Below, in pieces: positions 2,529 to 62,850 of a stretch of 64,000 nucleotides of DNA. Under the pieces are notes generated by a model. The model was not told where the DNA came from and did not search any database. It saw only the letters and a list, made by a program, of their open reading frames with translations. How positions within the stretch are numbered: position 1 is the first letter of the stretch; each line of letters begins with the position of its first letter. The stretch is from positions 30,581 to 94,580 of the forward strand of contig JANOAN010000013.1 in NCBI GenBank assembly GCA_031411135.1, written 5' to 3'. Origin of the DNA: a bacterium (lineage in GTDB: Bacteria; Patescibacteriota; Minisyncoccia; Phycocordibacterales; CAIZLB01). Made by a program: the position numbers and the translations under genes.

Positions 2529-3152
2529 ATGATGTACCAAATGGAACAAAAACCTCCTTCTCAGAATATCTTAGTCTCACTTTTTATCGGAATCGGCAAG
2601 TTTTTTTCAGGAGTCTTTAACTTTCTCTTTGCCGGACCAATTTTCACGATTTTTTTAGTAGCCATTATCCTTATTCGAATTTTTATCGCAGAACCATTCT
2701 TGGTTTATGGAAGTTCAATGGAGCCCAATTTTGAAACTGGTGACTATTTGATTGTCGACGAGTTGACTTATAAATTTGAAAGTCCTAAACGTGGTGACGT
2801 TGTAGTGTTAAAACCTCCTATGGATGAGGCCAAACACTACATAAAGCGCATAATCGGACTTCCTGGTGAGACTATTTCTGTAAATGGTAGTGTGGTTATA
2901 ATCAAAAATAAAGAACACCCCGAAGGCTTCACTTTAAATGAGCCATACATCACTTTCCAAAGTGATCGTGTTGCTAACTACGATTTGAATAATCACGAAT
3001 ATTTTGTTATGGGAGACAATCGTGCCGTCAGTTCTGATTCTAGAATCTGGGGACCACTCCCTGACAACTTAATTACAGGACGTGCTTTAATAAGAGTACT
3101 ACCTTTGAAAGACATCGGTATTATGCCTGGGAAGGTTAACTTGCCACAATAG
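2529..3152 (+). CDS. lepB: signal peptidase I
   Basis: N-terminal TM anchor, catalytic Ser box GSSMEPN, and the KRIIGLPGE and GDNRxxSxDSR boxes. Confidence 0.85.
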   Translation: MMYQMEQKPPSQNILVSLFIGIGKFFSGVFNFLFAGPIFTIFLVAIILIRIFIAEPFLVYGSSMEPNFETGDYLIVDELTYKFESPKRGDVVVLKPPMDEAKHYIKRIIGLPGETISVNGSVVIIKNKEHPEGFTLNEPYITFQSDRVANYDLNNHEYFVMGDNRAVSSDSRIWGPLPDNLITGRALIRVLPLKDIGIMPGKVNLPQ

Positions 3153-3181: not shown

Positions 3182-4453
3182 ATGGCGTCTTATTCTAAAT
3201 CTAACCCTAAAAAGCCTTCAAAGAGCCCAAAACAGGGCCCTAAACAGTCCCCATGCCTGACACATGCCTGTCGTACCGCTGCTCACTTTGGCTTCATAGA
3301 GTACAAGAATCTGGAGGTTGAGAAACAGGATATTGCGAAAGCAAAGAACTTTAAGGATAGTCTTCTTGCGAAGAAGTCTGTGCTCGAAACTAGTGCTCTA
3401 GATTTTGAAGGTTATTTGGAAGAAAAAATTGCAATCATTCGTCACTACATTGAAAAGAAAATGATCGAGCTGAATCAGCCACCAATGATTTTCTACGAAG
3501 GACCAATTTCTGGAAATCCACACATCAAAAAGCGAGAGAAAACATTCAATATCGATATTATTGGAAATGGAAAAAGTATCTCTGATGCAATCATTATTGA
3601 AACCACTTGTGCAATTTTGAAGGATTTAAATCCAGATGCTAGCCTATTGGTTGAAATTAATTCAATTGGCGACAAGGAATCATTCAATCGATTTAGTCGC
3701 GAATTCGTAAACTTTTACAAAAAACATTTAAATGATTTGCCATCGGAGGAACGTCAGATTTTCAAGAAGAATCCTTTTGACCTTTTGGCAAGTACACACG
3801 AAGTTTGCATGCAGTTAAATGCTGAAGCGCCACATCCGATGAATTACCTTTCAGAAGAAAGCCGCGAGCAATTCCGTGAAGTTTTGGAATACATTGAGTC
3901 TCTTAATATCGCATATTCAATCAATCACTGTTTAATTGGAAACGGATCATTCTGCAGTGGAACTATTTTCCGAGTAATGAATATTGTAGACACCGAGGAA
4001 AACGAGGAGCGAGTGGTTTGTGCTATCGGCGAGAGATATAACATTGTTGCTCGAAAAGCTTGGGGAAAGAAAGAAATTCCTGCGATCGGTGCATCAATTA
4101 TTCTAGAAGACAAGACTGCCAAGGGAATATTAAAAGAATCAAAACCTGTTAAAGCCGCGAAACCAAACGACACAAGATTTTTCTTCATACAATTAGGATA
4201 TGACGCCCGCCTTAAGAGTCTTACCATTATTGATATGCTCCGCGGTGCGAATATCCACGTTCACCAATCACTATCGAGAGACAAGATTTCAGCTCAACTT
4301 GCAGCTGCAGAGAAAATCGCAGCGCATTATTTACTCATTGTTGGACAAAAAGAAGCTATTGATAACAGCGTTACCATTCGACACATGAACACATTGGTAC
4401 AAGAAACGGTTGAGATTGCGAGCTTGATAAACTATTTAAAGAAGCTAATGTAG
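3182..4453 (+). CDS. histidyl-tRNA synthetase-like class II aaRS paralogue with divergent catalytic motifs and a Lys/Pro-rich N-terminal tail
   Basis: Class II core with HisRS-like motif 2 (FYEGP..NIDIIGNG) and a degenerate motif 3 (CAIGERYN instead of GGGRYD). C-terminal anticodon-binding-like domain (LLIVGQKE...VTIRHM). Confidence 0.5.
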   Translation: MASYSKSNPKKPSKSPKQGPKQSPCLTHACRTAAHFGFIEYKNLEVEKQDIAKAKNFKDSLLAKKSVLETSALDFEGYLEEKIAIIRHYIEKKMIELNQPPMIFYEGPISGNPHIKKREKTFNIDIIGNGKSISDAIIIETTCAILKDLNPDASLLVEINSIGDKESFNRFSREFVNFYKKHLNDLPSEERQIFKKNPFDLLASTHEVCMQLNAEAPHPMNYLSEESREQFREVLEYIESLNIAYSINHCLIGNGSFCSGTIFRVMNIVDTEENEERVVCAIGERYNIVARKAWGKKEIPAIGASIILEDKTAKGILKESKPVKAAKPNDTRFFFIQLGYDARLKSLTIIDMLRGANIHVHQSLSRDKISAQLAAAEKIAAHYLLIVGQKEAIDNSVTIRHMNTLVQETVEIASLINYLKKLM

Positions 4454-5588: not shown

Positions 5589-8500
5589 CTAGTTATTTGT
5601 TGCTTCTGGTGCCGGTGCAGCTGTTGCTTCTGGTGCTGCAATCACTTCTGGTGCTGGTGTAGGTGCAGTTTCAGTTTGCGGAGCTACAGGTTCAGAAACT
5701 GTAGGAATTACAGATGTTGGTGTTGTTGGCACGGGGTCAATTATAGTTTCAGTAACTGGTGGGGTTGTAACTTCTGGTACCAAAACTGTAGTTGTTCCTA
5801 GATTATTTTCATTAGACGAAACTGGTGTTGAATCCCCTGCACCCCCAACACCTACGGTTGATGTTGCGCCTTCTGATGAAACCCTGTTTTCATCGATAGA
5901 CAAAGTAGTTGATGTTGTTGTGGTTGTTGATGTATTTTGGTTAATATCATCTGTCGTTGTTGATGTATTTGTTGATGAAATAATTGTACTAATTTGATTA
6001 TCAGCATCATCCTTTGATTTGTAAGTTTTTACAAAGAACCAGTCGAATGAAATGCTAGATTGAGCTGGATGAACAATCCTGACCAAGAATCCTTGTCCTG
6101 CTCGCTTTTCAGCTACGAACAATGGTACATCTGTTGCAGAAGTTGGGGTCAGGAATACGTTTGAATTTTGATCAATTTGATTATTTTCAATAAAGACTTC
6201 CATTGTGCTTGTCGCAATGAAACCAACACCCGCAAGCTCGTTAGTGCCCGATGGCACAAAGATACTTCCTCCTGGCAAAATAGCTAGCACTTTGACAAAT
6301 GCTTGTTTTACATTCAATGCAATTACTGTAATTTTGTTTACCACCAGTGATGATATGTTCTGTGCCACTGATGTTATTGACATTGCAATGTCTGAAATAC
6401 TTGTATTTGCTAAGTCTACAATTTTTGACATCAAATCATCTCCTGTTTCAGTAAGCATATCAATAGTAGATGACGCGATGTCCAGTGTAGTGGTTGCATT
6501 GTCCAAATCATTTGAAGAAATTGTCTCCATTCCTATGAACACCATTACTGTTGCAGCTTCTGTCGAGTCACTGCCGTCGTATGCAGACATAGCACGTCCT
6601 ACAACACGTCCCGGATGTGTTGCCTTCGCGGCTTTTCCTGGCTCGGTGCTAGTCATCAAATAATCCCCGATAACAATTGGACCATTTTCAAGAGTGACTT
6701 TTACAGGTACGCGTCCTGCTAGTGCTACAGGGATGGCTGTGGCGCCATCAATTGTGGCATCCTGCTGTGATAATCGTAAGGCAGGATTTTTTGAATATAT
6801 ACCAATAACATTTTTGTCATTTGTGCCTGATGATTTTGTTACCAATCCGTGTTCGTGAACATCAATACTAATTACATCGCCCGCTTCTAAGGTGTCGTCT
6901 CGTGTTGGATAGTCCTCGGCTATGTCATATGCACCAAAAGCGGTATTAATACCATGACTAAACCTGAACACACCAGTGTTTAGATTTCCTGTATTTGCGA
7001 ATGAATTATTGTCTCCAAAAAACTGAATAGTACCTGTATTTAAATTTCCGTTTACTTCACCTCCACCCTGACCAGAGTTTGCATTAAACATAAGGTTATA
7101 GGATTCCTGACCAATAAAGTTATATGAATAGACTTCTGCACCGTTTGCTTTTCCTGTACCGAACCATAGATCTCCGTTATAAATATTTATTGAATAAACT
7201 CCTGTGATAGCATTAGATGCGGCACCTGTGATCACTCCGGCTGTGGTACTTGAAACTCGAGTCCAGTTATTACCAATATCTAATTGATAAACTTCGGCGG
7301 TATTACTTGTGTCTACAGTACCTACATAAAGGTTACCCTTATAAACTCCCATTGCACCAATTGAGTCGATACCCGTTGTTGCTCCCACGTCTTCCGCAAT
7401 AACACCAACTGTTGAACTAGATACCACCTGAAAGACGTTTGTTGCACCGGCTGCTGTTGCGGCGGTACTGTCCCATTTCAATACACGTGCAGTACCAGCA
7501 CCGTCACTGATACCCAGATAAAGTTTACCGTTAAAATTAGACATTGATGTAATAGAGTCTACGGCGGTAATTGCAACACTTTGTCCAGCAAACGTACCAG
7601 CTGTGTTTAAAATAGTGAAACCGTTACCAGGTGTAGCACCCGGGCCATCATATCTATAGAGACCTGCAGCATTCAGCTTGTTTCCTGCAACATACAGGGT
7701 ACCCAGGTAAGTGGCCATAGCACTGATCTTATCGACCAGTGTGGTTGCTCCAATTGTACCGGCGTTAGTTAAATGAGAGACCTTTGTCCAGTTGTTGTTG
7801 TTTCCTGTTCCAACATCATATCTATACACTTCAGCTCCTCCAGTTTTCTGAGTACCGATATATAGAAAACCTCCATTAACAGTCATGGCTGACACAGCAT
7901 CAATTGCAGTTGTTGTTGCAGTACCACCGATTGCCCCAGCAGTACTACTTGAAATCAAACTCCATGTCGTACCACCTCCATATCTGTAAACTTCAGCTGC
8001 ACCAGTTTTACCGGTACCAATATATAATTGTCCGTTGTATACAATCATTGAAGCAATTGAAGTGATCGCTGCCGTTCCTCCACTTGCAATTGTTCCAGCT
8101 GTCGCTTGAGACACCTTTGTCCAGTTACTTGTTCCACTATCAAATCGGTAAATTTCTGCCGCTCCAGAAGAAGATGCGGTTCCTGCATACAGTGATCCAT
8201 TAAAGACAGTCATTACAGTTGTTGAACCAATACCTGTCGTTCCTGCAGAGCGGATTTGGCCAACTGCTGTTGATCGAGTTGTCCAAGTAGCTGTGGTTGA
8301 AGCTTGAGATCCGACTAAAACATTCCCCATCACGGTTAATTTTTCAGAAGGTGATGTTGTACCAATACCTAAACGTTTGTTTGTGTTATCCCAGAAGAAG
8401 TTACTGTCAGCGTTGAATGCACCTGTAGTTGAGAACTGTACATACCCATCTGAACCACTTGGAGTACCCGCACCAACCCCTCCGATTGTTGTCCACGAAC

Positions 8501-11500
8501 CAGCAGAGTTCTTAAACTGCATTGTTCCTGCATTGTCTCTGAATCCATATCCGTTTGTTCCAGTGGCAACTGTTCCGAAGTTTAGATACCTAGACAGTCC
8601 CTCGAGCCAGACGTCACCATTTACGTCAAGTTTAGCGGCGGGAGTAGAAGTTCCCAAGCCCAAATTTCCTGATGCAGTCACTGTAACTAATCTTGTATTA
8701 GAAGATGATGATATCGCTAACAAATCTGTTGTTGGAGTACTCGATGTTCCATAAATATCCAATTTTGCAGATGGAGTGGTTGTTCCGATTCCAACAGTTC
8801 CAGTTGAGGATGCAACATAAACTAAATTTTCCAAACTAAGCGCACCGCTAGTATTTTTTAATGGAATATTTGGCAAGTAAAATCCAGTAGAATCAATACT
8901 GACAGTTTTGTTTGGTTGTTGATACGCATAAACCCCACCCGGTGCACCGTTAACATTGTCCATGTATTGAAGTTCCAACCTACTAGACAGTGATGTTGAT
9001 GAAATGTTTGTTATATAGTTATTAAATCTTCCAGTTGTGTGAGTGTTTTGAGCACTATCTTTTGCTCCAAATGCATAGTGTCCCGCAATATTTCCGTTTG
9101 CTGCGGTTGCTTGGTTGTAAAGTACAAAAATACCACCAGTACTGTAATCAATAACTTGCATTCTACCTGAATTAAACATTTCCAATATTAGTCTATTACT
9201 ACTATCTAATGCTGCAATAGTTCTTGATGTTGTATCAGTTGTACTGCCTGTAACGGTAAATCGTCCGTATTCTGTTGGCGAGGCAATTAATTGACTACCT
9301 GCAAAATATGACTTTGCGGCAGATCCATTATAAATTGAATAATTATTCGTTGTACCAGCACCCCCTGTACCACCATTACCTGTTATGTATAAACCGTAGT
9401 TATTAGTTGTACCTGCACCAGAACCAGAACCTAAAAATATCTGCCCACCGAAGTTATTAACTGTTCCCCCAGAACCCGCAGCAGCTGTGTGTCCTCCAAT
9501 TAAATATCCATAGTTATTGATAGTGCCAGATGTTGTACCATTACCATTTGAAAAACCAGCAGATACAAACCCAGAGTAATTCGTAAAAGGCAAAGTGCCG
9601 GACTGAGTAGGTGCTCCTGCATAAAATCCATATCCACTGGAAATCAATCCTGTATAACTTGCTGCGGTGTCTACTCGACTGTATGTTCCAAACACATTTG
9701 ATATAGGAGCGGAACTGTTGGCAATAGTGGGTAAGTTAATTAGACCGAAAACACTACTCACAGAAGCTCCTGTTGGGGTAATTACCGAACCATTATAAAA
9801 ACCATTGATTTGCCCAGTATTCGAAGAACTGACAGTTCCGGAAAGCTTAAGTAGAGCGTCCCCCCCTGATGTTGTGGTTAAAGTTCCACCTACATCAAGT
9901 TTTGAAGTTGGAGCAGAAACACTCAAACCAATGTTTCCGTTGGCTGCTACTGTAAATATTCTGGAATTTGATGAAGAAGATACTGCAAATATATCAGTTG
10001 TTGGAGCAGTGGATGTTCCATATACATCTAACGTGGCAGTTGGAGAGGTTACTCCAATACCAACTAACCCTGCTGTATTAATTGTAAACTTTGTTGAATT
10101 AAAGTTTGCCTGATTTGTAGATATTTTAAATTTACTGGAATCATTTGAATCAAGCCCCATGGACCAGGCTTGATTATTTGTTTTCAAGAAAGTCAGGAAC
10201 GTTCCAAAAGAATTCGCGGCTGAGTTTTCTAAAACAACTTGAGTTTTTGTTGAGGTTGCGATAAATCTAGCAACATCCTGAACACCAATTCCGGCTACAA
10301 CATCTAGATAAAAAGTAGGAGTTGTTGTTCCAATACCGACATTACCAGAACCAGCAGCAATAGCAATCGCGGCCTTCGAATGTGTTCCGTTTATCAAAAT
10401 CGATCTTTCTGATGTTGAATCATCTTGAATACTTGATGACGCTATACCTCCAATAAATCCACCGGTGTTTTGACCCGTAAAACCTAAACCAACCTGAAAT
10501 TGACGGCCGAAAGCATTTGAAATTAAATGTGCTGCTGCGGTGTTTGCATTTCCAAGAGCGTTACTCCAAATAGCGGTTGGTGAATATCCCGTAGTGTTAT
10601 ACGTTGTTGCAAGTGTCCCATAGTTCGCTGCGTCAATTTCGGCCCCAGTATACTTCCCAGTATCATTATCTCTTCTTCCAAGGAAGAAACCTCCAATTCC
10701 CGCACCCGTACCGGAACCAGTAATCCTACCTACTCCATAAACTCCTAACGCATCATTTTCTCCACCACCACCAGGATTTGATGTCGAATCATTTAAACCA
10801 AAACCAGAAACCCCGACAGGTTGAACTTCTGTACCACTTACACCTTTAGCAATACCCACAATGGCTGAATAGGCTTCAACACCATCACCATTAATGCTGT
10901 TTGCAGTTGCAATTGCATCAGTAATAGAAAGAATTCTTTCAACCTTAAGTCCTGGATTTGTATTTTGATCAGGTGAAGCGGTTGTACCTATTCTAATTCC
11001 CAATTCTTGGGCCGTTGTTGTGTTATACATTTGAACAGCATCACCTGTTCCAATTGAAAGTCGTGACCAAGGCGAGGTTGTTGCAAGACCCAACCTTCCA
11101 TTCGCAGTGACTGTAAATATTCTCGCATTTGATGAAGATGAGACTGCGAACAGATCCGTAGTTGGCGCACTTGATGTGCCGTAAATATCGAGTCTTGCAG
11201 ATGCAGAAGAAGTACCAATTCCAAAACTCGATGAAATTGCTGCCGTAGTATTTCCGAGAATAAATTTGTTTGAACCACTTGTAGCTTCTGAATATAATTT
11301 CCAATTTGGCGCACTATTACTGCTATACCAACTAATAGCATTGTTTTTTGCCAACGCTATTGCAGGAGGTGTTGGATCAGTTGAAGTACTGATTGCATCA
11401 GCAGAGATTATAATACCACTGTTAAAAAGTCCTCCATTTGGAGTAATTTGAATAGCAGCAGTAACACTAGTAAATGTTCCAGGTATAGTACTCGTCCCTG

Positions 11501-13211
11501 AATCAACACGAAGACCAAATGTTCCACCTGGAACATTGTCTAGGTACGGAGTCGTAGAGACAGATGTCCAGTGATTTCCTACGCTAATTTCCGCACCGAA
11601 AGTTTGCAAACCCTGATTCCCTGATGCTTCTGTATCCGCCTCTACATAAATACCCCACGCTGTATGAGCTACAGTCGGATGGTCGTTCACAGCCAAAAAA
11701 TCGGCACCTATTACCGCACTACTTGTTCCTCCAGTATTATCCCTTGCACGTGAAGCAAATACCCCGCCTGCAAGACCGAATGGACTAACTGCGTAAACGC
11801 TGTGCAAAGATGGATACTGAGCACCGCTGAGATAATCTTTTGGCCATGCAGCAGCAGAAGCAGAACCAAAGTATCCATAGTCAGCATAAGCTATACCGCT
11901 TACTGATAGTGGAAATGCAGGACTTGAGCTGCCAATCCCCACATTCCCTTCCGCAGTGATGGTAAACAATCGAATGTTTGTAGAAGAAGCGATAGCAAAA
12001 ATATCTGTCGTAGCACCAGATGTTCCAGTAATAGCGAGTTTTGCTGAAGGTGAGGTGGTGCCGATACCAACGTTTCCGCCAGAGGTGATTCTTAGTCGTT
12101 CAGTTCGTGAGACTGATCCATCAGCTGTAGTGAGGAATCTTAAGTAGGTAGGCAAAGAAGTAGTGCTCACAGTTCCTGAATCTACTATAGCCTCAATACC
12201 TGAGGTATGTCTAAAAGCACTGCCGGCATATCCTCCGAAAATATTAAATCCTAGTCTATCTCCTGCTACCACATCAGTTGGTAAGGCATCAGTACCACGA
12301 GCATATCTTGCCAAAACTCCTCCACCAGCATTAACGTTTGTTCCCCCGTAAGAATCAAGATTTAAGGTCAATGCAACAGTGGCGTTACTTTGAGTCACTT
12401 TAAAGGGTGAGTTTGCTGATGTTGTATAGACATGAAGGAGTGCGGAGGGTGTACTCGTACCAATCCCCACATTCCCCGCTGCGTTCACTGTAAACAACCT
12501 CGCATTTGTAGATGAAGAAATAGCAAATATATCGGCTGACCCAGCGGTGCCATATATATCGAGTTTGGCGGATGGGCTACTTGTCCCAATTCCCACATTT
12601 CCATTCGATAATAAATCCAATGCGATAACACTACTCGTTCCTGTAAATGTAGCTATATGCCCAGTTCCAAGTTGTCTAATATCCAAAAAAGTACTCGCGG
12701 TATTCGTAGAATTAATTGCATCCGCTCTCAAAAACTGATCCGATGAGAGCCCATTTAAATATTGTGATTGAATTGCCGCAGGTACCGCTCCCAATTTTTT
12801 ACGTGGACTCATTTCTCCGTCATACGACGGTGCTCCTGTACCACCAATGTTTACCCCTAAATAAAGCGTCTGATTAAAATCAACTCCGGTAAATGCAGTT
12901 GTACTTCCAAGCATTACTGAAAACAAACCATTTGTTACCTGCACTTTGTTTGCACCAGTATCAGTTTCAGTCCAAACAGGTGTTGTAGTTGAATTGTTTA
13001 CATACAATTTAAATTCAATATTGTACAAACCATCAGCAACTGCAACACCTGCATTATCAGTCAGTTTTCCCTGGTAATTTATTTGTTGGTTAATGGCAGC
13101 ATCTGCCACCAAGACTCTGACCCCCCATATTGCAAATATTAAAACAAAAGTTCCAATTATAAAATTGAAATTTAGTTTGCTCTTATTTTTCTTTAAATGA
13201 AATATACTCAT
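5589..13211 (-). CDS. giant (2540 aa) Gly/Thr/Ser-rich surface protein with an N-terminal signal-anchor, tail-fibre-like repeats, a 7-bladed beta-propeller region and a Thr/Pro-rich C-terminal stalk
   Basis: Single uninterrupted ORF. N-terminal TM/signal (IIGTFVLIFAIWGV). At least 5 copies of a ~45-aa repeat (TDIFAISSSxNxRIFTVxAxGNVGIGTxxPSAKLDxxG). Seven LYxGT..G.AEVYRYD..W..VS blades. The C-terminus is TTPPVTETIIDPVPTTPTS...APAPE. Confidence 0.85.
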   Translation of the reverse strand: MSIFHLKKNKSKLNFNFIIGTFVLIFAIWGVRVLVADAAINQQINYQGKLTDNAGVAVADGLYNIEFKLYVNNSTTTPVWTETDTGANKVQVTNGLFSVMLGSTTAFTGVDFNQTLYLGVNIGGTGAPSYDGEMSPRKKLGAVPAAIQSQYLNGLSSDQFLRADAINSTNTASTFLDIRQLGTGHIATFTGTSSVIALDLLSNGNVGIGTSSPSAKLDIYGTAGSADIFAISSSTNARLFTVNAAGNVGIGTSTPSALLHVYTTSANSPFKVTQSNATVALTLNLDSYGGTNVNAGGGVLARYARGTDALPTDVVAGDRLGFNIFGGYAGSAFRHTSGIEAIVDSGTVSTTSLPTYLRFLTTADGSVSRTERLRITSGGNVGIGTTSPSAKLAITGTSGATTDIFAIASSTNIRLFTITAEGNVGIGSSSPAFPLSVSGIAYADYGYFGSASAAAWPKDYLSGAQYPSLHSVYAVSPFGLAGGVFASRARDNTGGTSSAVIGADFLAVNDHPTVAHTAWGIYVEADTEASGNQGLQTFGAEISVGNHWTSVSTTPYLDNVPGGTFGLRVDSGTSTIPGTFTSVTAAIQITPNGGLFNSGIIISADAISTSTDPTPPAIALAKNNAISWYSSNSAPNWKLYSEATSGSNKFILGNTTAAISSSFGIGTSSASARLDIYGTSSAPTTDLFAVSSSSNARIFTVTANGRLGLATTSPWSRLSIGTGDAVQMYNTTTAQELGIRIGTTASPDQNTNPGLKVERILSITDAIATANSINGDGVEAYSAIVGIAKGVSGTEVQPVGVSGFGLNDSTSNPGGGGENDALGVYGVGRITGSGTGAGIGGFFLGRRDNDTGKYTGAEIDAANYGTLATTYNTTGYSPTAIWSNALGNANTAAAHLISNAFGRQFQVGLGFTGQNTGGFIGGIASSSIQDDSTSERSILINGTHSKAAIAIAAGSGNVGIGTTTPTFYLDVVAGIGVQDVARFIATSTKTQVVLENSAANSFGTFLTFLKTNNQAWSMGLDSNDSSKFKISTNQANFNSTKFTINTAGLVGIGVTSPTATLDVYGTSTAPTTDIFAVSSSSNSRIFTVAANGNIGLSVSAPTSKLDVGGTLTTTSGGDALLKLSGTVSSSNTGQINGFYNGSVITPTGASVSSVFGLINLPTIANSSAPISNVFGTYSRVDTAASYTGLISSGYGFYAGAPTQSGTLPFTNYSGFVSAGFSNGNGTTSGTINNYGYLIGGHTAAAGSGGTVNNFGGQIFLGSGSGAGTTNNYGLYITGNGGTGGAGTTNNYSIYNGSAAKSYFAGSQLIASPTEYGRFTVTGSTTDTTSRTIAALDSSNRLILEMFNSGRMQVIDYSTGGIFVLYNQATAANGNIAGHYAFGAKDSAQNTHTTGRFNNYITNISSTSLSSRLELQYMDNVNGAPGGVYAYQQPNKTVSIDSTGFYLPNIPLKNTSGALSLENLVYVASSTGTVGIGTTTPSAKLDIYGTSSTPTTDLLAISSSSNTRLVTVTASGNLGLGTSTPAAKLDVNGDVWLEGLSRYLNFGTVATGTNGYGFRDNAGTMQFKNSAGSWTTIGGVGAGTPSGSDGYVQFSTTGAFNADSNFFWDNTNKRLGIGTTSPSEKLTVMGNVLVGSQASTTATWTTRSTAVGQIRSAGTTGIGSTTVMTVFNGSLYAGTASSSGAAEIYRFDSGTSNWTKVSQATAGTIASGGTAAITSIASMIVYNGQLYIGTGKTGAAEVYRYGGGTTWSLISSSTAGAIGGTATTTAIDAVSAMTVNGGFLYIGTQKTGGAEVYRYDVGTGNNNNWTKVSHLTNAGTIGATTLVDKISAMATYLGTLYVAGNKLNAAGLYRYDGPGATPGNGFTILNTAGTFAGQSVAITAVDSITSMSNFNGKLYLGISDGAGTARVLKWDSTAATAAGATNVFQVVSSSTVGVIAEDVGATTGIDSIGAMGVYKGNLYVGTVDTSNTAEVYQLDIGNNWTRVSSTTAGVITGAASNAITGVYSINIYNGDLWFGTGKANGAEVYSYNFIGQESYNLMFNANSGQGGGEVNGNLNTGTIQFFGDNNSFANTGNLNTGVFRFSHGINTAFGAYDIAEDYPTRDDTLEAGDVISIDVHEHGLVTKSSGTNDKNVIGIYSKNPALRLSQQDATIDGATAIPVALAGRVPVKVTLENGPIVIGDYLMTSTEPGKAAKATHPGRVVGRAMSAYDGSDSTEAATVMVFIGMETISSNDLDNATTTLDIASSTIDMLTETGDDLMSKIVDLANTSISDIAMSITSVAQNISSLVVNKITVIALNVKQAFVKVLAILPGGSIFVPSGTNELAGVGFIATSTMEVFIENNQIDQNSNVFLTPTSATDVPLFVAEKRAGQGFLVRIVHPAQSSISFDWFFVKTYKSKDDADNQISTIISSTNTSTTTDDINQNTSTTTTTSTTLSIDENRVSSEGATSTVGVGGAGDSTPVSSNENNLGTTTVLVPEVTTPPVTETIIDPVPTTPTSVIPTVSEPVAPQTETAPTPAPEVIAAPEATAAPAPEATNN

Positions 13212-14746
13212 AAGAAGACAAATCTAATCAGGAACAACAGGAACCACAGGGTAATTAAAACTAAAGCCAACTTGGCAACAGGGGGCACGATCGTTGATGC
13301 AAAACTTTTGAGCTTCGAGACAAAACCTTTATCAACAACTTCCCCTTTATTATCAACTGATTTCATAGAAAACAAACCAGTGGCAATAACCGCCTCCTGA
13401 CCACCTAATTCTAGCATCTTTACGTAAAATTTATAGTCACCTTGGTAGGCAAAAGCGGGGACAACTACCCCAAATTTCCTCTCACTGTCGTCTTTATTCA
13501 ATAGATACCCAAATCTTTCATTAAAAATATTTCCATCAACACATAAAACCAATGTCGACCCATCAAATCTAGGATTTTTGTCAAAAGGAATTTCAAGTGT
13601 CATTGGATAACTTGAGTCCAATTGAATATTTGAACCATTTCTATATACAGTTTTTTTATTTTGCAAAAATCTAATATTTGACGCATCCAAATTCAAAGTA
13701 TTTGGGGTCGTCTGAGGATAACCTAAATCATTCTTATTGGTGAATAAATTGTCAGTTATTGAGCAAATATTTGGACGTCCTATATTTTTATTAATAGTAC
13801 CTGTCAAAATTTCACCATCTGAATTAGCTGTAAATATATAAGGTTTTCCATCAACCAATAGTGGATCCTTTGGTTTTGCAGGTACAGAAGTGGTCGCAAT
13901 ATTTGTTGTTGTGTTTTTTGGTTTTTTATAGGTTAATTGCAAAATTGCTGGTCCTGAAAAGTTTCCGCTCTTGTCGCTTGAAAAAAGCGAATAGTAATAC
14001 GTAACACCTTCTCTTACATCCAAATCTGAAACATTTTCCCCTGCTCCCTCATAAATAATTTTTCCTGAAAATTGATCTTTTGGAAAGCTAATGTCAGATC
14101 GAACAAGTTTTACTTTAGAAAAATCCAAATTTTTTGGATTTGTCCATCTTAGAAGAGTAAAGTCAGGTGCCAATGCGTACCTAAATTCAGATGGTGGAGG
14201 TGGCGCATCATTATCAATTGATGCAGTTGTCACAAAATCTCCTTCAAAGTGAAAAACTCTGCTCAAAGTATCAGTTAAAGTTAAGTAATAGTAATAATGC
14301 GTTGATGGTAATAAGTTTTCAACACGAATATTAAATTGTTCATGGTACCAAGATTCTGCCAAAGAGCCTATTTCATATTCTCCTTTATTTCCCCATGATA
14401 ATGTCATGTGGGATGCAAATTTTGTTTTAAAAACGATAACCGCATGGTCTTCTGAAGGTACAACTTCTATTTCGTCCACCAAAAAATCTGCTGTGGTAAA
14501 TGGTGTAGTAGTGGCAGTTGAAGTATTGTTTGTGGAACCTGAACCACTTGGAACAACAGGAGGTGGTGGGCAATCTGCAGCGCAAGTGGCAGTTGTTTCT
14601 CCGATCATGGGTTCACAAACTGTATTAAGATTACAAGACGCAACATTTAAATAAACATTTACTGATCCTGCCAGTGCAACTTTAGACGAAACTAAACCTA
14701 TAAAAATGAGCAAAAATGCGACCTTGCAAAAAAATTTCATGTCCAC
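13208..14746 (-). CDS. type-I membrane protein with signal peptide, Cys-rich module, FN3-like domain and C-terminal TM anchor
   Basis: 512 aa. Signal MDMKFFCKVAFLLIFIGLVSSKVALA. Cys-rich module CNLNTVCEP...CAADCPPPP. FN3-like stretch (PPPSEFRYALAPDFTLLRWTNP...YYYSLFSSD). C-terminal TM LALVLITLWFLLFLIRFVFL. A 4-nt ATGA overlap with the giant gene implies translational coupling. Confidence 0.7.
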   Translation of the reverse strand: MDMKFFCKVAFLLIFIGLVSSKVALAGSVNVYLNVASCNLNTVCEPMIGETTATCAADCPPPPVVPSGSGSTNNTSTATTTPFTTADFLVDEIEVVPSEDHAVIVFKTKFASHMTLSWGNKGEYEIGSLAESWYHEQFNIRVENLLPSTHYYYYLTLTDTLSRVFHFEGDFVTTASIDNDAPPPPSEFRYALAPDFTLLRWTNPKNLDFSKVKLVRSDISFPKDQFSGKIIYEGAGENVSDLDVREGVTYYYSLFSSDKSGNFSGPAILQLTYKKPKNTTTNIATTSVPAKPKDPLLVDGKPYIFTANSDGEILTGTINKNIGRPNICSITDNLFTNKNDLGYPQTTPNTLNLDASNIRFLQNKKTVYRNGSNIQLDSSYPMTLEIPFDKNPRFDGSTLVLCVDGNIFNERFGYLLNKDDSERKFGVVVPAFAYQGDYKFYVKMLELGGQEAVIATGLFSMKSVDNKGEVVDKGFVSKLKSFASTIVPPVAKLALVLITLWFLLFLIRFVFL

Positions 14747-14787: not shown

Positions 14788-15558
14788 CTATAAAGTAGTC
14801 GCTGTTACCGTAACCGAAGCCGAGTACCCAGGAGAAGCCTCTTGAATTGTAGCCGATCCAATTTCTACCCTATATTTTATAGTGGTCGTTGCACCTGTTG
14901 TGTTTGGTCCTGATGATTGAGAAATGGTAATTGGGGTTGTTGAAAAACCATCCCAACAAGCATTAGCAGTATCGCTTGTTCCAAAATTACAAGATGCACC
15001 ATTATCTTTGTATCGTTGGACAATATCTGTTCCCTCTGGACTAAATCCAAAATACGCCTGACTACTTGTAACTGTAAACGAATAATCTGGATTAGCTCCT
15101 GATGGTACATAATCAGGGATTGAAGTATTCGCAGATTTCAGAGCCGGACTAGTCGAGGCCACAATAGTTAACTGATAACCCAAGGAATTATTAGTCGTAA
15201 CAACCCAATCACTTGAACTTGTCGCCACACCTCCTGTTAAACCACTGATATTTGGTAATGAGACTCCACTTGGTGAATTAATTGTTATATAGGTAGAACT
15301 TGCTGCAGTATACTGCCAAAATCCAGCGTCATTTAGACGATAATTCGTACTTGATGAGAGTCCCGTAGCAACCTCACCGACTGAATCAGAAACTTTATAA
15401 TTTGTACTATTTGATAAATTTGTACCACCAGCATTAACAGAATCAGAATCTATTCTGTAATTTGAACTACCCATTGTATACGCCATTAGAGATACTGGGA
15501 AAAAATATATCAACACTATAGCGCAAAAAATTTTATGCATATTTTTTTTATCTTTCAT
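14788..15558 (-). CDS. secreted small surface protein, paralogue of 16649..17296 (WxL-like)
   Basis: Signal peptide. Three SNYR(I/L)xD repeats. Shared block DWVVTTNNSLGYQLTIVASTSPA...SGQAYFGFSPEGTD...GYSASVTVTATTL. Confidence 0.65.
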   Translation of the reverse strand: MKDKKNMHKIFCAIVLIYFFPVSLMAYTMGSSNYRIDSDSVNAGGTNLSNSTNYKVSDSVGEVATGLSSSTNYRLNDAGFWQYTAASSTYITINSPSGVSLPNISGLTGGVATSSSDWVVTTNNSLGYQLTIVASTSPALKSANTSIPDYVPSGANPDYSFTVTSSQAYFGFSPEGTDIVQRYKDNGASCNFGTSDTANACWDGFSTTPITISQSSGPNTTGATTTIKYRVEIGSATIQEASPGYSASVTVTATTL

Positions 15559-15623: not shown

Positions 15624-16577
15624 CTATCTCTTCTTAAATTCAAACTTTTTAGTAAACAAGTAGATCAAGAAGAATACAACAAACAGAATTGCCAAGACTG
15701 AAACAATATACATCCATGGTAAAACCCAAAAACCTAGGTCCTTTTTATCAATCATATTGGAATATCCTCTATGTAATTCTAAGTGAGCATTGTAATATCC
15801 AAACAAAAATTCTTTTGGCCATGTCACCTGTCTGTACCTTAGTGAATTTGGTAGTGCAAAGTAAGCATCAACTGGTATTTCAGTCACTTTTTGTCCAAAA
15901 ATATTTGTAATTGTTAGCATTCCGTATGGCACAAGGTGAATATTTCCTGAATTTCTAAAAAGCATTTCAAAAGTCAACGGACCATTTTGTAACACTCCAA
16001 ACTTTGGACCAGTCACCCTCATTTCTTCAAGTGAACCTGATTCTTTAACATCTCCATTTATTCGTATAAAAAACAAAACACCAACTCGTGAAATTAACCT
16101 CGTACCCGCTGCCCCTCCATCCGTAGAATTATCAGGAACACTCGACACAATGACGGTTGTATAAAATCCTCCTGGCTGAGCATCCTTTGGAGCAGTAATA
16201 GAAACGGGTATTTCAATTTTTTGACCAAGGTCTAAATTAAAGCTATTTGTGTCTGGTTTAATATTATCCTTGAATGAATACGGGCTTTTATCATTTCCAA
16301 GCAAAATTACTGGGGTTTCTGGATTTTGAGAACCAATAAAATCTTCTGTGCTAACTGTAAACTTTTGCTTTCTATTAATTCTACTAGTTACTGCAATATT
16401 TTTAACAACTGTCTCTCCAGGGTTCATAAATATTTCTATTTTTCCAGGCTCTAGTACGAAATCACCTCGATCGTCTGCTCCGCTGTTAGTTATAGTATAA
16501 GCATCTGCAGTACTACTCATTCCAAATAGTGCTATTCCCAGAATTAACGTGTTTAGTATTGTTTTTTTAGCAACCAT
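15624..16577 (-). CDS. cell-surface protein with N-terminal signal and C-terminal TM anchor (DUF916/DUF3324-like, as in WxL loci)
   Basis: 317 aa. The N-terminal half (FVLEPGKIEIFMNPGETVVKNIAVTS) and the C-terminal half (VLQNGPLTFEMLFRNSGNIHLVPYGMLTI...W...GYYNAHLEL) resemble DUF916 and DUF3324 respectively. Ends with a TM helix and KKFEFKKR. The family assignment is from memory and unverified. Confidence 0.6.
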   Translation of the reverse strand: MVAKKTILNTLILGIALFGMSSTADAYTITNSGADDRGDFVLEPGKIEIFMNPGETVVKNIAVTSRINRKQKFTVSTEDFIGSQNPETPVILLGNDKSPYSFKDNIKPDTNSFNLDLGQKIEIPVSITAPKDAQPGGFYTTVIVSSVPDNSTDGGAAGTRLISRVGVLFFIRINGDVKESGSLEEMRVTGPKFGVLQNGPLTFEMLFRNSGNIHLVPYGMLTITNIFGQKVTEIPVDAYFALPNSLRYRQVTWPKEFLFGYYNAHLELHRGYSNMIDKKDLGFWVLPWMYIVSVLAILFVVFFLIYLFTKKFEFKKR

Positions 16578-16648: not shown

Positions 16649-17296
16649 TTATGAGGCAGTTGCTGTAGCTGTAATTGTAGCCTGATAATTACCAGCTGGG
16701 ATGTATGTATTGTTTTGCTCTACTGCGTAGCAAACGACTGAATCAACACCTGATGGAGTCGTTGTAGAAGATCGACTAGCGATTTGCACACCTGACGTTG
16801 TGAATCCCTTGTATTTTAGAGTAGTTGAAGTACCGTTTGGAGTACTGTAACAAAGTGAGCCTGTTCCCCATGTACCTGTTGGTACATCCGTCCCGAAAGA
16901 TGAGTAACCGAAGTATGCCTGTCCTGATGTTGCAACCCAAAGGTTAGGAGCACCTGTCTGGTAATCCGCAATACTGTTTGGAGTTGTTGTTGAATTCATA
17001 GCAGGAGTAGAGGTTGCCTGCACAGTCAGTGTATATCCAGTAGCACTGTTTGTTTTAACATTCCATGTTGTTGTTCCGTTTGCCGAGTTCTGTGCAACAC
17101 CCAGTGCCGTGCTCATGTTTGAGTTTGAAGGACTTGTGATCGATACACCTGATGTTACGTTTAATGTGATAACAACAGAACTACTTGCAGTTGCTGCTCC
17201 GGCAGTAGCGGGTTCAATAATTGAGTAAGCACCTCCTAGTAGGAGTACCGAGACCAGAGAAGCGGCTGTGGATTTTTTTATAAGTGGTAACAACAT
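16649..17296 (-). CDS. secreted small surface protein, paralogue of 14788..15558 (WxL-like), first gene of the operon
   Basis: Signal peptide. TTWNVKTNSATGYTLTVQATSTPA...SGQAYFGYSSFGTD...AGNYQATITATATAS. A 190-nt AT-rich promoter region lies upstream. Confidence 0.65.
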   Translation of the reverse strand: MLLPLIKKSTAASLVSVLLLGGAYSIIEPATAGAATASSSVVITLNVTSGVSITSPSNSNMSTALGVAQNSANGTTTWNVKTNSATGYTLTVQATSTPAMNSTTTPNSIADYQTGAPNLWVATSGQAYFGYSSFGTDVPTGTWGTGSLCYSTPNGTSTTLKYKGFTTSGVQIASRSSTTTPSGVDSVVCYAVEQNNTYIPAGNYQATITATATAS

Positions 17297-62636: not shown

Positions 62637-62719
62637 AGTGACTTTCGTCACTCGTACCAGTTTCCCGATACGGCCGATCAGAGCAAACCCCATATAATGG
62701 GTTCTTTGGCTCTGATCGG
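62637..62719. promoter_or_regulatory. nested inverted repeats in a divergent promoter region (putative operator)
   Basis: gtgac-tttc-gtcac. An 11-bp perfect inverted repeat ccgatcagagc...gctctgatcgg encloses the palindrome cccATATAATggg, a -10-like hexamer. Confidence 0.45.
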
Positions 62720-62850
62720 AGCTTCTTTCACCATGCCACCGATTGCTCGATGGTTTAGGCTACTTTTGGACTTATTTAGTTGTATATCAATGATAGCATG
62801 TTACTCCCCGCCGATAAACACTATTCTTTGTTTTAGGGTAAAATATAACC

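Follow-up and report, generated by a model that had tools for sequence, protein, structure and literature searches.

A 64,000-nucleotide stretch of a patescibacterial contig (JANOAN010000013.1, positions 30,581 to 94,580; the whole stretch is referred to as the window) contains a giant gene whose 2540-aa product is, in our judgement, probably a trimeric surface adhesin resembling the mosaic adhesive trimer (MAT) fibres of Bdellovibrio bacteriovorus (Caulton et al. 2024; PMC10769870). It would be docked through its N-terminal domain (N-domain) on the products of a cassette of four upstream genes (A-D), would carry a beta-propeller as its head and would be folded with the help of an intramolecular chaperone of the type found in phage phi29 gp12 (Peptidase_G2, hereafter G2-type). 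The novelty lies in the combination: a fibre of the MAT/phage type has a propeller as its head, a chaperone like that of gp12 and a conserved base cassette dedicated to it. Searches of the literature turned up the MAT paper but nothing on such fibres, the G2-type class or the cassette in Patescibacteria.

The gene and the parts of its protein are as follows (a slash within a sequence marks a cleavage site; pLDDT, predicted local distance difference test):

5589..13211 (-): giant fibre gene, 2540 aa, uninterrupted open reading frame (ORF), identical protein in an independent assembly
13098..13211 (-), aa 1-38: probable cleavable Sec signal peptide with a basic N-region, a hydrophobic core and an A-D-A/A site
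12717..13097 (-), aa 39-165: conserved N-terminal beta-sandwich of 127 aa, putative docking domain, pLDDT 93-97
8295..12716 (-), aa 166-1639: fibre region (shaft) carrying 12 copies of the capping-loop motif GNVGIGTxxPxxKL, with beta-rich segments inserted
7110..8294 (-), aa 1640-2034: seven-bladed beta-propeller, putative distal ligand-binding head, AlphaFold2 pLDDT ~80-90
6927..7109 (-), aa 2035-2095: Gly/Asn-rich linker, possibly a trimeric neck, ending in ...FGAY before D2096, pLDDT <50 as a monomer
6495..6926 (-), aa 2096-2239: Peptidase_G2-like (phi29 gp12 D4-like) chaperone/trimerisation module with D2096, E2099 and a putative autocleavage site Y2095/D2096
6282..6494 (-), aa 2240-2310: long helix at aa ~2260-2300 (model residues 641-681), low pLDDT as a monomer, possibly a coiled coil
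6012..6281 (-), aa 2311-2400: C-terminal beta-sandwich of ~90 aa, pLDDT ~82, with an F-[DN]-W-x-[FI] motif conserved in homologues
5592..6011 (-), aa 2401-2540: Thr/Ser/Pro low-complexity tail; similar tails occur in the homologues P0002-P0015

Thr, Gly, Ser and Ala are abundant in the protein, and Cys is absent. The internal DNA repeats of the gene are only 60-76% identical to one another and the copies are therefore old, and the Logan assembly of the public run SRR20217193 yields exactly the same 2540-aa protein with the same neighbour genes. It follows that the ORF did not arise by collapse of shorter repeated genes during assembly, a possibility that had been raised together with the original prediction and that is ruled out here as far as sequence allows. 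Searches of the whole protein and of ten segments against Pfam, NCBIfam and PHROG returned only a weak (sub-threshold) Pfam propeller match and one PHROG tail-fibre match, and none from NCBIfam.

Shaft, propeller and probable chaperone module

At the sequence level, the repeated motif of the protein is the capping loop of trimeric beta-helix fibres, as in the solved structures of Bdellovibrio MATs. The strict pattern G[N..][VIL]G[IL]G[TS]xxPxxxL matches ten times (aa 204, 246, 379, 422, 705, 956, 1048, 1092, 1471 and 1515), compared with a mean of 0.002 matches in the shuffled protein, and looser copies at aa 662 and 1612 give a total of 10-12. Five pairs of loops are 42-44 aa apart, in agreement with the at least five repeats of about 45 aa seen in the original prediction. 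The resemblance to phage tail-fibre proteins that was noted there was found again in a match to PHROG 9942 'tail fiber' (4e-19) and, with phmmer, in three MAT fibres of known structure:

8OL4, Bd2439: E 8e-9, fibre aa 283-409, resembling the Bd2439 beta-helix
8OJN, Bd3182: E 2e-5, fibre aa 955-1077, resembling the Bd3182 beta-helix
8OND, Bd2133: E 4e-4, fibre aa 1010-1102

All three alignments traverse a capping loop. The capping loop of Bd3182 (R656-H669) reads RVGVGTTAPTSALH, and copies in the fibre protein read NVGIGTTTPTFYLD, NVGIGTSSPSAKLD and the like; NNYG repeats are found within aa 1105-1500. An AlphaFold monomer model of aa 36-470 gave only weak fold matches, with E 0.01-0.07, to the fibres Bd2133, Bd3182 and Bd1334; no better match would be expected in this form from a type of chain whose folding requires the trimer.

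The blade motif (xYxGxLYxG...AEVYRYD...W) recurs seven times, with starts at aa 1667, 1722, 1776, 1832, 1890, 1954 and 2008. In an AlphaFold2 model reaching from the propeller to the C-terminal region (aa 1620-2420, 17 homologues as input), aa ~1640-2034 form seven four-stranded blades with pLDDT ~80-90, and Foldseek retrieved seven-bladed structures, so the propeller predicted from the run of seven blades is upheld. No specific Pfam propeller family was found above threshold. The best Foldseek matches in the PDB were LGI1 EPTP and the Photorhabdus lectins PLL/PHL (fucose/O-methyl-sugar), with E ~1e-9 and a template modelling score (TM) of 0.6-0.67 on the target; propeller glycosidases came after these lectin-type matches. 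These folds suggest that the propeller may be a binding head for a surface glycan or protein of another cell.

The same region would have to be read differently if the protein were a tailspike-like enzyme, its propeller acting as a glycosidase or depolymerase on the capsule or a wall polymer of the host or prey, as the K1F endosialidase does. That phi29 gp12 itself degrades teichoic acid (PMC9863714) and that the fold matches include propeller glycoside hydrolases (BT3686 and a putative neuraminidase) as well as phage proteins is in line with such an activity, but the best fold matches, LGI1 EPTP and the PLL/PHL lectins, are non-enzymatic, and neither Pfam nor NCBIfam detected a hydrolase or other enzyme family in the propeller. 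The conserved blade residues (LYxGT, AEVYRYD) also look structural, and we regard an enzymatic head as rather unlikely. The K1F/K1E endosialidase tailspikes are trimers in which a beta-propeller is combined with a beta-helical stalk and, at the C-terminus, with an intramolecular chaperone that cleaves itself off; their propeller has six blades and is catalytic, and their chaperone is of the S74 type. The fibre protein, presumably also a trimer, has the same combination of propeller, beta-helical shaft and C-terminal chaperone, and differs by having seven blades instead of six catalytic ones and a G2-type chaperone instead of S74. No sequence similarity was found between the K1F/K1E propeller and that of the fibre.

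The GIYSKNPALRLSQ...HPGRVVGRAMSAYDG segment, for which an autoprocessing or intramolecular-chaperone-like function had been suggested, falls within a conserved module (aa 2096-2239) that is common to 78 of the 120 best homologues and always lies toward the C-terminus. A profile built from 46 diverse copies of this module matched in the PDB the cleaved auto-chaperone fragment of gp12 D4 (3GQH; 6.8e-4), full-length phi29 gp12 (6QZ9; 2.4e-3) and the 'chaperon domain D4' of the tailspike Dpo31 (28NB; 5.6e-4). The alignment begins at residue 1 of 3GQH, DFAEYFES, which is D692 of the full-length chain (TWS/DFAEY), and places the near-invariant D-x-A-E of the module family (D2096-I-A-E2099 in the fibre) on DFAE of gp12, where we take D692 and E695 to be the Asp of the new N-terminus and the Glu three residues on. 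Both residues are retained in 42 of the 46 copies; the remaining four have lost one or both. Eleven of the 46 family members reach the Pfam family Peptidase_G2 (PF11962), the best with 2e-7. In addition, the predicted fold of the module (pLDDT ~80) matched models of phage 'preneck appendage protein' in BFVD (Foldseek, 25-31% identity over ~155 columns; for the matches with E 1.5e-7 and 3.3e-7 and TM 0.59-0.64, 25-26% identity over ~157-185 columns).

The S74 chaperone (PF13884; S-D-x-x-x-K motif), present in many homologues, was not detected in the fibre at E<=1 with the whole protein or at E<=10 with its segments. Thus the suggestion of an intramolecular chaperone holds for the kind of module but not for the S74 type: aa 2096-2239 are probably a chaperone of the phi29 gp12 (G2) type and, by analogy, the chain is probably autocleaved between Y2095 and D2096. 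As in phi29 gp12 (Peptidase_G2; 3GQH, 3SUC, 6QZ9), the module starts at the equivalent of D692, keeps D-x-A-E, has preneck-type fold matches and lies C-terminal to the receptor-binding part of a fibre that is trimeric in gp12 and presumably also here. The fibre differs from gp12 in that the similarity is at the profile level only (E ~6e-4), Tyr, Ala or Phe instead of Ser precedes the Asp, extra C-terminal domains follow, the setting is extracellular and cleavage is putative. Release of gp12 is said, in work by Xiang et al. from 2009, to involve ATP. The intramolecular chaperone of gp12 is missing from the mature virion (PMC9863714).

Among 1.84 billion proteins, the module profile matches 30,555 representatives when E<=1e-3 is required and 24,741 when the limit is E<=1e-10, and nearly all of the best 150 listed are proteins of ~800-6,800 aa. 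This indicates a very large unannotated family around the gp12-type chaperone module.

The N-domain and the upstream gene cassette

The only hydrophobic stretch of the protein (aa 13-40) ends with V-A-D-A/A-I-N-Q-Q-I-N-Y-Q-G-K-L-T, and in every fibre homologue inspected A-x-A/A (AEA/A, ADA/A, AQA/A or LFA/A) stands directly ahead of the conserved INYQGKLT. As signal peptidase I sites have this AxA/A pattern, the stretch more likely belongs to a cleavable signal peptide than to the N-terminal signal-anchor of the original prediction, which was not borne out.

The N-domain that follows is common to 88 of the 120 best homologues, in nearly all of which it lies at the N-terminus or close to it; the middle and C-terminal regions of the homologues vary. 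The N-termini of MATs and of phage receptor-binding proteins are proximal (PMC10769870; PMC9863714), and because the fibre homologues likewise have a common N-domain and a variable remainder, we assume that the N-domain is the end proximal to the cell. No PDB fold match to it was obtained at E<=1e-3; the absence of a PDB homologue has also been reported for the N-domains of MATs. A hidden Markov model (HMM) of the N-domain matches ORFs in Margulisiibacteriota (6e-11) and Vicinamibacterales loci that had been chosen solely because they encode a Bd2439-like beta-helix. When genomes were scanned with a fragment of Bd2439 rebuilt from its PDB alignment, relatives came up in Peredibacter, Acidobacteriota, Margulisiibacteriota and others, and none in B. 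bacteriovorus; a protein search with the same fragment gave no matches.

Two of these other bacteria deserve separate mention. In a Vicinamibacterales metagenome-assembled genome (JBMDXB010000090.1; locus L002, 2896-4416 (+)), an ORF of ~470 aa consists of a signal peptide, the N-domain, one Bd2439-like beta-helix and a terminal G2-like module, and looks like a minimal form of the giant-fibre design; two more N-domain ORFs are present on the same 8-kb contig. In the predatory bacterium Peredibacter sp. HCB2-198 (locus L003, 8402-11983 (+)), a MAT-like fibre of 1193 aa with the capping-loop motif has a lipoprotein-type N-terminus (lipobox-like ...IASAC) in place of the beta-sandwich N-domain, which shows that the MAT-like fibre design can use other anchors.

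The fibre gene is preceded by four co-directional genes with export signals, for none of which a Pfam match was found and which did not figure in the original prediction, and is followed by a fifth small gene:

16649..17296 (-): gene A, 215 aa, small secreted beta-rich protein, paralogue of C
15624..16577 (-): gene B, 317 aa, signal peptide, beta-rich ectodomain, C-terminal transmembrane helix (aa 281-313); weakly WxLIP-like (DUF916-type)
14788..15558 (-): gene C, 256 aa, secreted beta-rich protein with SxNY repeats, paralogue of A
13208..14746 (-): gene D, 512 aa, Cys-rich N-terminal knot, FN3-like domains, C-terminal transmembrane helix
5138..5566 (-): gene F, 142 aa, N-terminal transmembrane anchor, downstream of the fibre, conserved only beside propeller/G2-type fibres

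The stop codon of gene D overlaps the start codon of the fibre gene (4 nt), and FN3 / Pur_ac_phosph_N matches were found on gene D orthologues. Genes A-B-C-D lie directly upstream of the fibre in all eight Patescibacteria-type loci examined, whatever the fibre tip: in the window and in the loci of P0003, P0004, P0009 and P0013, which have the order A-B-C-D-fibre with propeller/G2-type fibres, and in those of P0016, P0119 and P0047, which have the same order with fibres that share only the N-domain and have an S74 C-terminus. Orthology was established by BLAST and HMMs, with identities of 47-67% for A, B and C and of 28-34% for D; A, B and C are thus more conserved across the loci than the fibres themselves. 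The cassette is absent from the more distant P0021 locus and from MAT-like loci outside the Candidate Phyla Radiation (CPR). Being found with N-domain fibres regardless of their tips, the cassette travels with the N-domain and not with the tip, and we therefore propose that it encodes an envelope base to which the N-domain docks. At the P0119 locus (L015, 2367-3799 (+)), gene A is duplicated (216 and 249 aa, each 49-56% identical to gene A of the window); the small secreted subunit thus varies in copy number.

For gene B, a profile search identified 390 homologues, all of them close and devoid of Pfam domains; the few named ones belong to Parcubacteria, Paceibacterota, Taylorbacteria or the 'Patescibacteria group'. 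Gene B itself matched neither Pfam nor NCBIfam, including DUF916 and DUF3324. In the PDB its profile matched EfmWxLIP1 of Enterococcus faecium (9I25, chain 9i25_C; 9I1Y) over the N-terminal 125 residues with E 0.002. WxL/Csc clusters of Firmicutes encode WxL proteins together with WxLIP (DUF916-DUF3324-transmembrane helix), and the wall-binding domain of their large protein is C-terminal (Hassan et al. 2023; PMC10599100). With these clusters the locus shares small secreted beta-proteins, a C-tail-anchored beta-rich protein (gene B, whose C-terminal transmembrane helix is placed as in WxLIP), one very large surface protein and a single-membrane envelope. It differs from them by the lack of Pfam WxL, DUF916 and DUF3324 domains, of the dual Trp-x-Leu in A and C and of a C-terminal WxL domain in the large protein. 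We regard the parallel as a lead and not as a classification.

Weighing the adhesin model and its alternatives

Together, these observations are compatible with the following model. The fibre would be exported by the Sec route and its signal peptide removed; the C-terminal G2-like module and the helix would nucleate the folding of a homotrimer, after which the intertwined beta-helical shaft, punctuated by capping loops, would zip up. Self-cleavage before D2096 would free the C-terminal 445 residues (module, helix, beta-sandwich and Thr/Pro tail) and expose the head. At the other end, the N-terminal beta-sandwich would hold the fibre at the envelope by docking to the products of the four co-transcribed genes A-D, a base composed of two small secreted beta-proteins and two C-tail-anchored membrane proteins. 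The three propellers, one per chain, would bind a surface glycan or protein on a partner cell, which may be the host.

The closest known counterparts of such a structure are the MATs, which have a signal peptide, an invariant beta-rich N-domain of ~130 aa, a shaft of intertwined trimeric beta-helices with capping loops and a variable adhesive tip; 13 of 21 MATs end in a self-cleaving S74 chaperone, and the fibres are structurally related to those of phages T5 and K1F (PMC10769870). The protein of the window resembles them in its probable signal peptide, beta-rich N-domain, shaft with the same capping loops and variable tip that is often followed by an autoproteolytic chaperone, as well as in the proposed use, recognition of the surface of another bacterium. 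It differs in that it is 2.5 times longer, has a seven-bladed propeller as its tip and a G2-type instead of an S74 chaperone, continues for ~300 further residues and the Thr/Pro tail past the chaperone, and belongs to a host with a Gram-positive-like envelope with a single membrane. A dedicated conserved four-gene cassette is a further difference; none is mentioned in the text or supplement of the MAT paper that were searched.

Several points limit the model or weigh against it. Correspondence of the N-domain to that of the MATs is likely, judged by the published description of the latter. The docking of the N-domain to the A-D products is proposed from gene neighbourhood. For the module, the PDB profile matches have E values of only ~6e-4, and the fibre's own copy gave no match to PF11962 at E<=10. 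In several homologues (for example P0020 and P0119) the G2-like module is trailed by more fibre and S74, and in others (P0033, P0147 and more) it is repeated, with 2-4 copies in many giant proteins; it therefore cannot always be a terminal chaperone that removes itself, and may instead remain in place as a trimerisation knot. Monomer models of the shaft and the neck have low confidence. Finally, gene B resembles WxLIP only weakly (19.5 bits). No WxL domain was found in genes A and C, which had no Pfam or PDB match and in which inspection by eye showed a single W-x-V and no second motif. A WxL identity of A and C thus found no support.

The C-terminal end bears on the orientation of the fibre. 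Thr, Ser and Pro make up 46% of the last 140 aa, compared with 26% elsewhere in the protein, so the original prediction was right about a T/S/P-rich C-terminal segment. Its role as a mucin-like stalk was not supported: with both the distal propeller and the putative autocleavage site on its N-terminal side, the tail more likely belongs to the chaperone or the released C-terminal fragment. Pro/Thr-rich segments typically span Gram-positive walls, and with the polarity reversed, the C-terminal beta-sandwich and a wall-spanning Thr/Pro tail would anchor the fibre, the G2-like module would stay uncleaved and the N-domain would form the distal tip. The weakly WxLIP-like gene B is consistent with this arrangement, large WxL proteins being bound to the wall C-terminally (PMC10599100), and so is the conserved Trp motif of the C-terminal beta-sandwich; that domain, however, has ~90 aa and a single Trp and is not a dual-motif WxL domain. 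Moreover, the cassette also occurs beside S74-ended fibres that have only the N-domain in common, and the characterised MATs and phage fibres all have a proximal N-domain and a chaperone C-terminal to the tip. Reversed polarity is therefore considered unlikely.

The adhesin model also assumes recognition of a specific partner. The great size of the family and its presence in many phyla would suit a structural or matrix fibre serving spacing, aggregation, biofilm formation or an S-layer. Yet different tips (propeller/G2, S74, Kelch, LVIVD, Ig-like) are swapped on a constant base, a signature of receptor-binding diversification, as argued for MATs (PMC10769870), and a fibre with no specific recognition appears decidedly unlikely to us.

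Distribution, implications and other features of the window

Named homologues of the fibre come from Parcubacteria, Paceibacterota, Taylorbacteria, Yonathbacteria, Minisyncoccia and the 'Patescibacteria group', which makes the CPR origin and surface-fibre role suggested in the original prediction plausible; relatives at the level of the module occur in Omnitrophica, Zixibacteria and Peribacteria. The fibre locus is flanked by housekeeping genes (peptidyl-tRNA hydrolase, signal peptidase I, S1 protein) and not by phage genes, and orthologous fibre loci have pyruvate kinase and other housekeeping neighbours, with synteny conserved across genomes. Among 50,697 GenBank phage records a single weak match, in a jumbo phage, was obtained, and no relatives were found in IMG/VR with the patterns tried. 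The fibre is therefore a cellular gene and not prophage cargo. That the gene is an artefact of assembly or encodes the tail fibre of a prophage or tailocin, as the phage-like motif and the chaperone module might suggest, is hardly credible and already largely refuted by these neighbours, the conserved synteny and the near-empty searches, as well as by the diverged DNA repeats and the identical second assembly.

Taking the adhesin model further, one can tentatively imagine a chromosomal 'fibre apparatus' of the Parcubacteria/Paceibacteria type, a possibility that we would not call probable. Its A-D base would be a distant, Trp-less relative of the WxL/Csc systems, and the trimers docked by their N-domains would have heads (propeller, Kelch, LVIVD, Ig-like and others) and G2 or S74 chaperones that are swapped between lineages to match their hosts. 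The G2-type fibres would then represent a third, undescribed MAT-like class with tens of thousands of members in many phyla.

What is known of host finding and attachment in ultrasmall CPR/Patescibacteria comes largely from Saccharibacteria, in which type IV pili and unnamed adhesins have been implicated (PMC12206443, PMC10633639). A fibre whose base stays constant while its lectin-like head can be exchanged would be a concrete, testable candidate for host recognition in uncultivated Parcubacteria, and its head could be used to fish for host glycans or cells, helping to pair these organisms with their hosts. The MAT concept would at the same time be extended from a Gram-negative predator to single-membrane bacteria of the episymbiont type.

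Three further features of the window were noted. A signal peptidase I gene (Peptidase_S26, 1e-43) is present at 2529-3152 (+), 2.4 kb away from the fibre operon and its six genes for exported proteins; this may be a coincidence. Next to it, at 3182-4453 (+), a 423-aa protein is encoded in which Pfam finds only the HGTP anticodon-binding domain (aa 349-421) and no class II synthetase core, and which may be a divergent or non-catalytic HisRS-like paralogue. At 62637-62761 (-), there is a full-length match to the Rfam LOOT RNA (RF03000; 91.6 bits, gathering threshold 46.4), a small RNA motif of unknown function.

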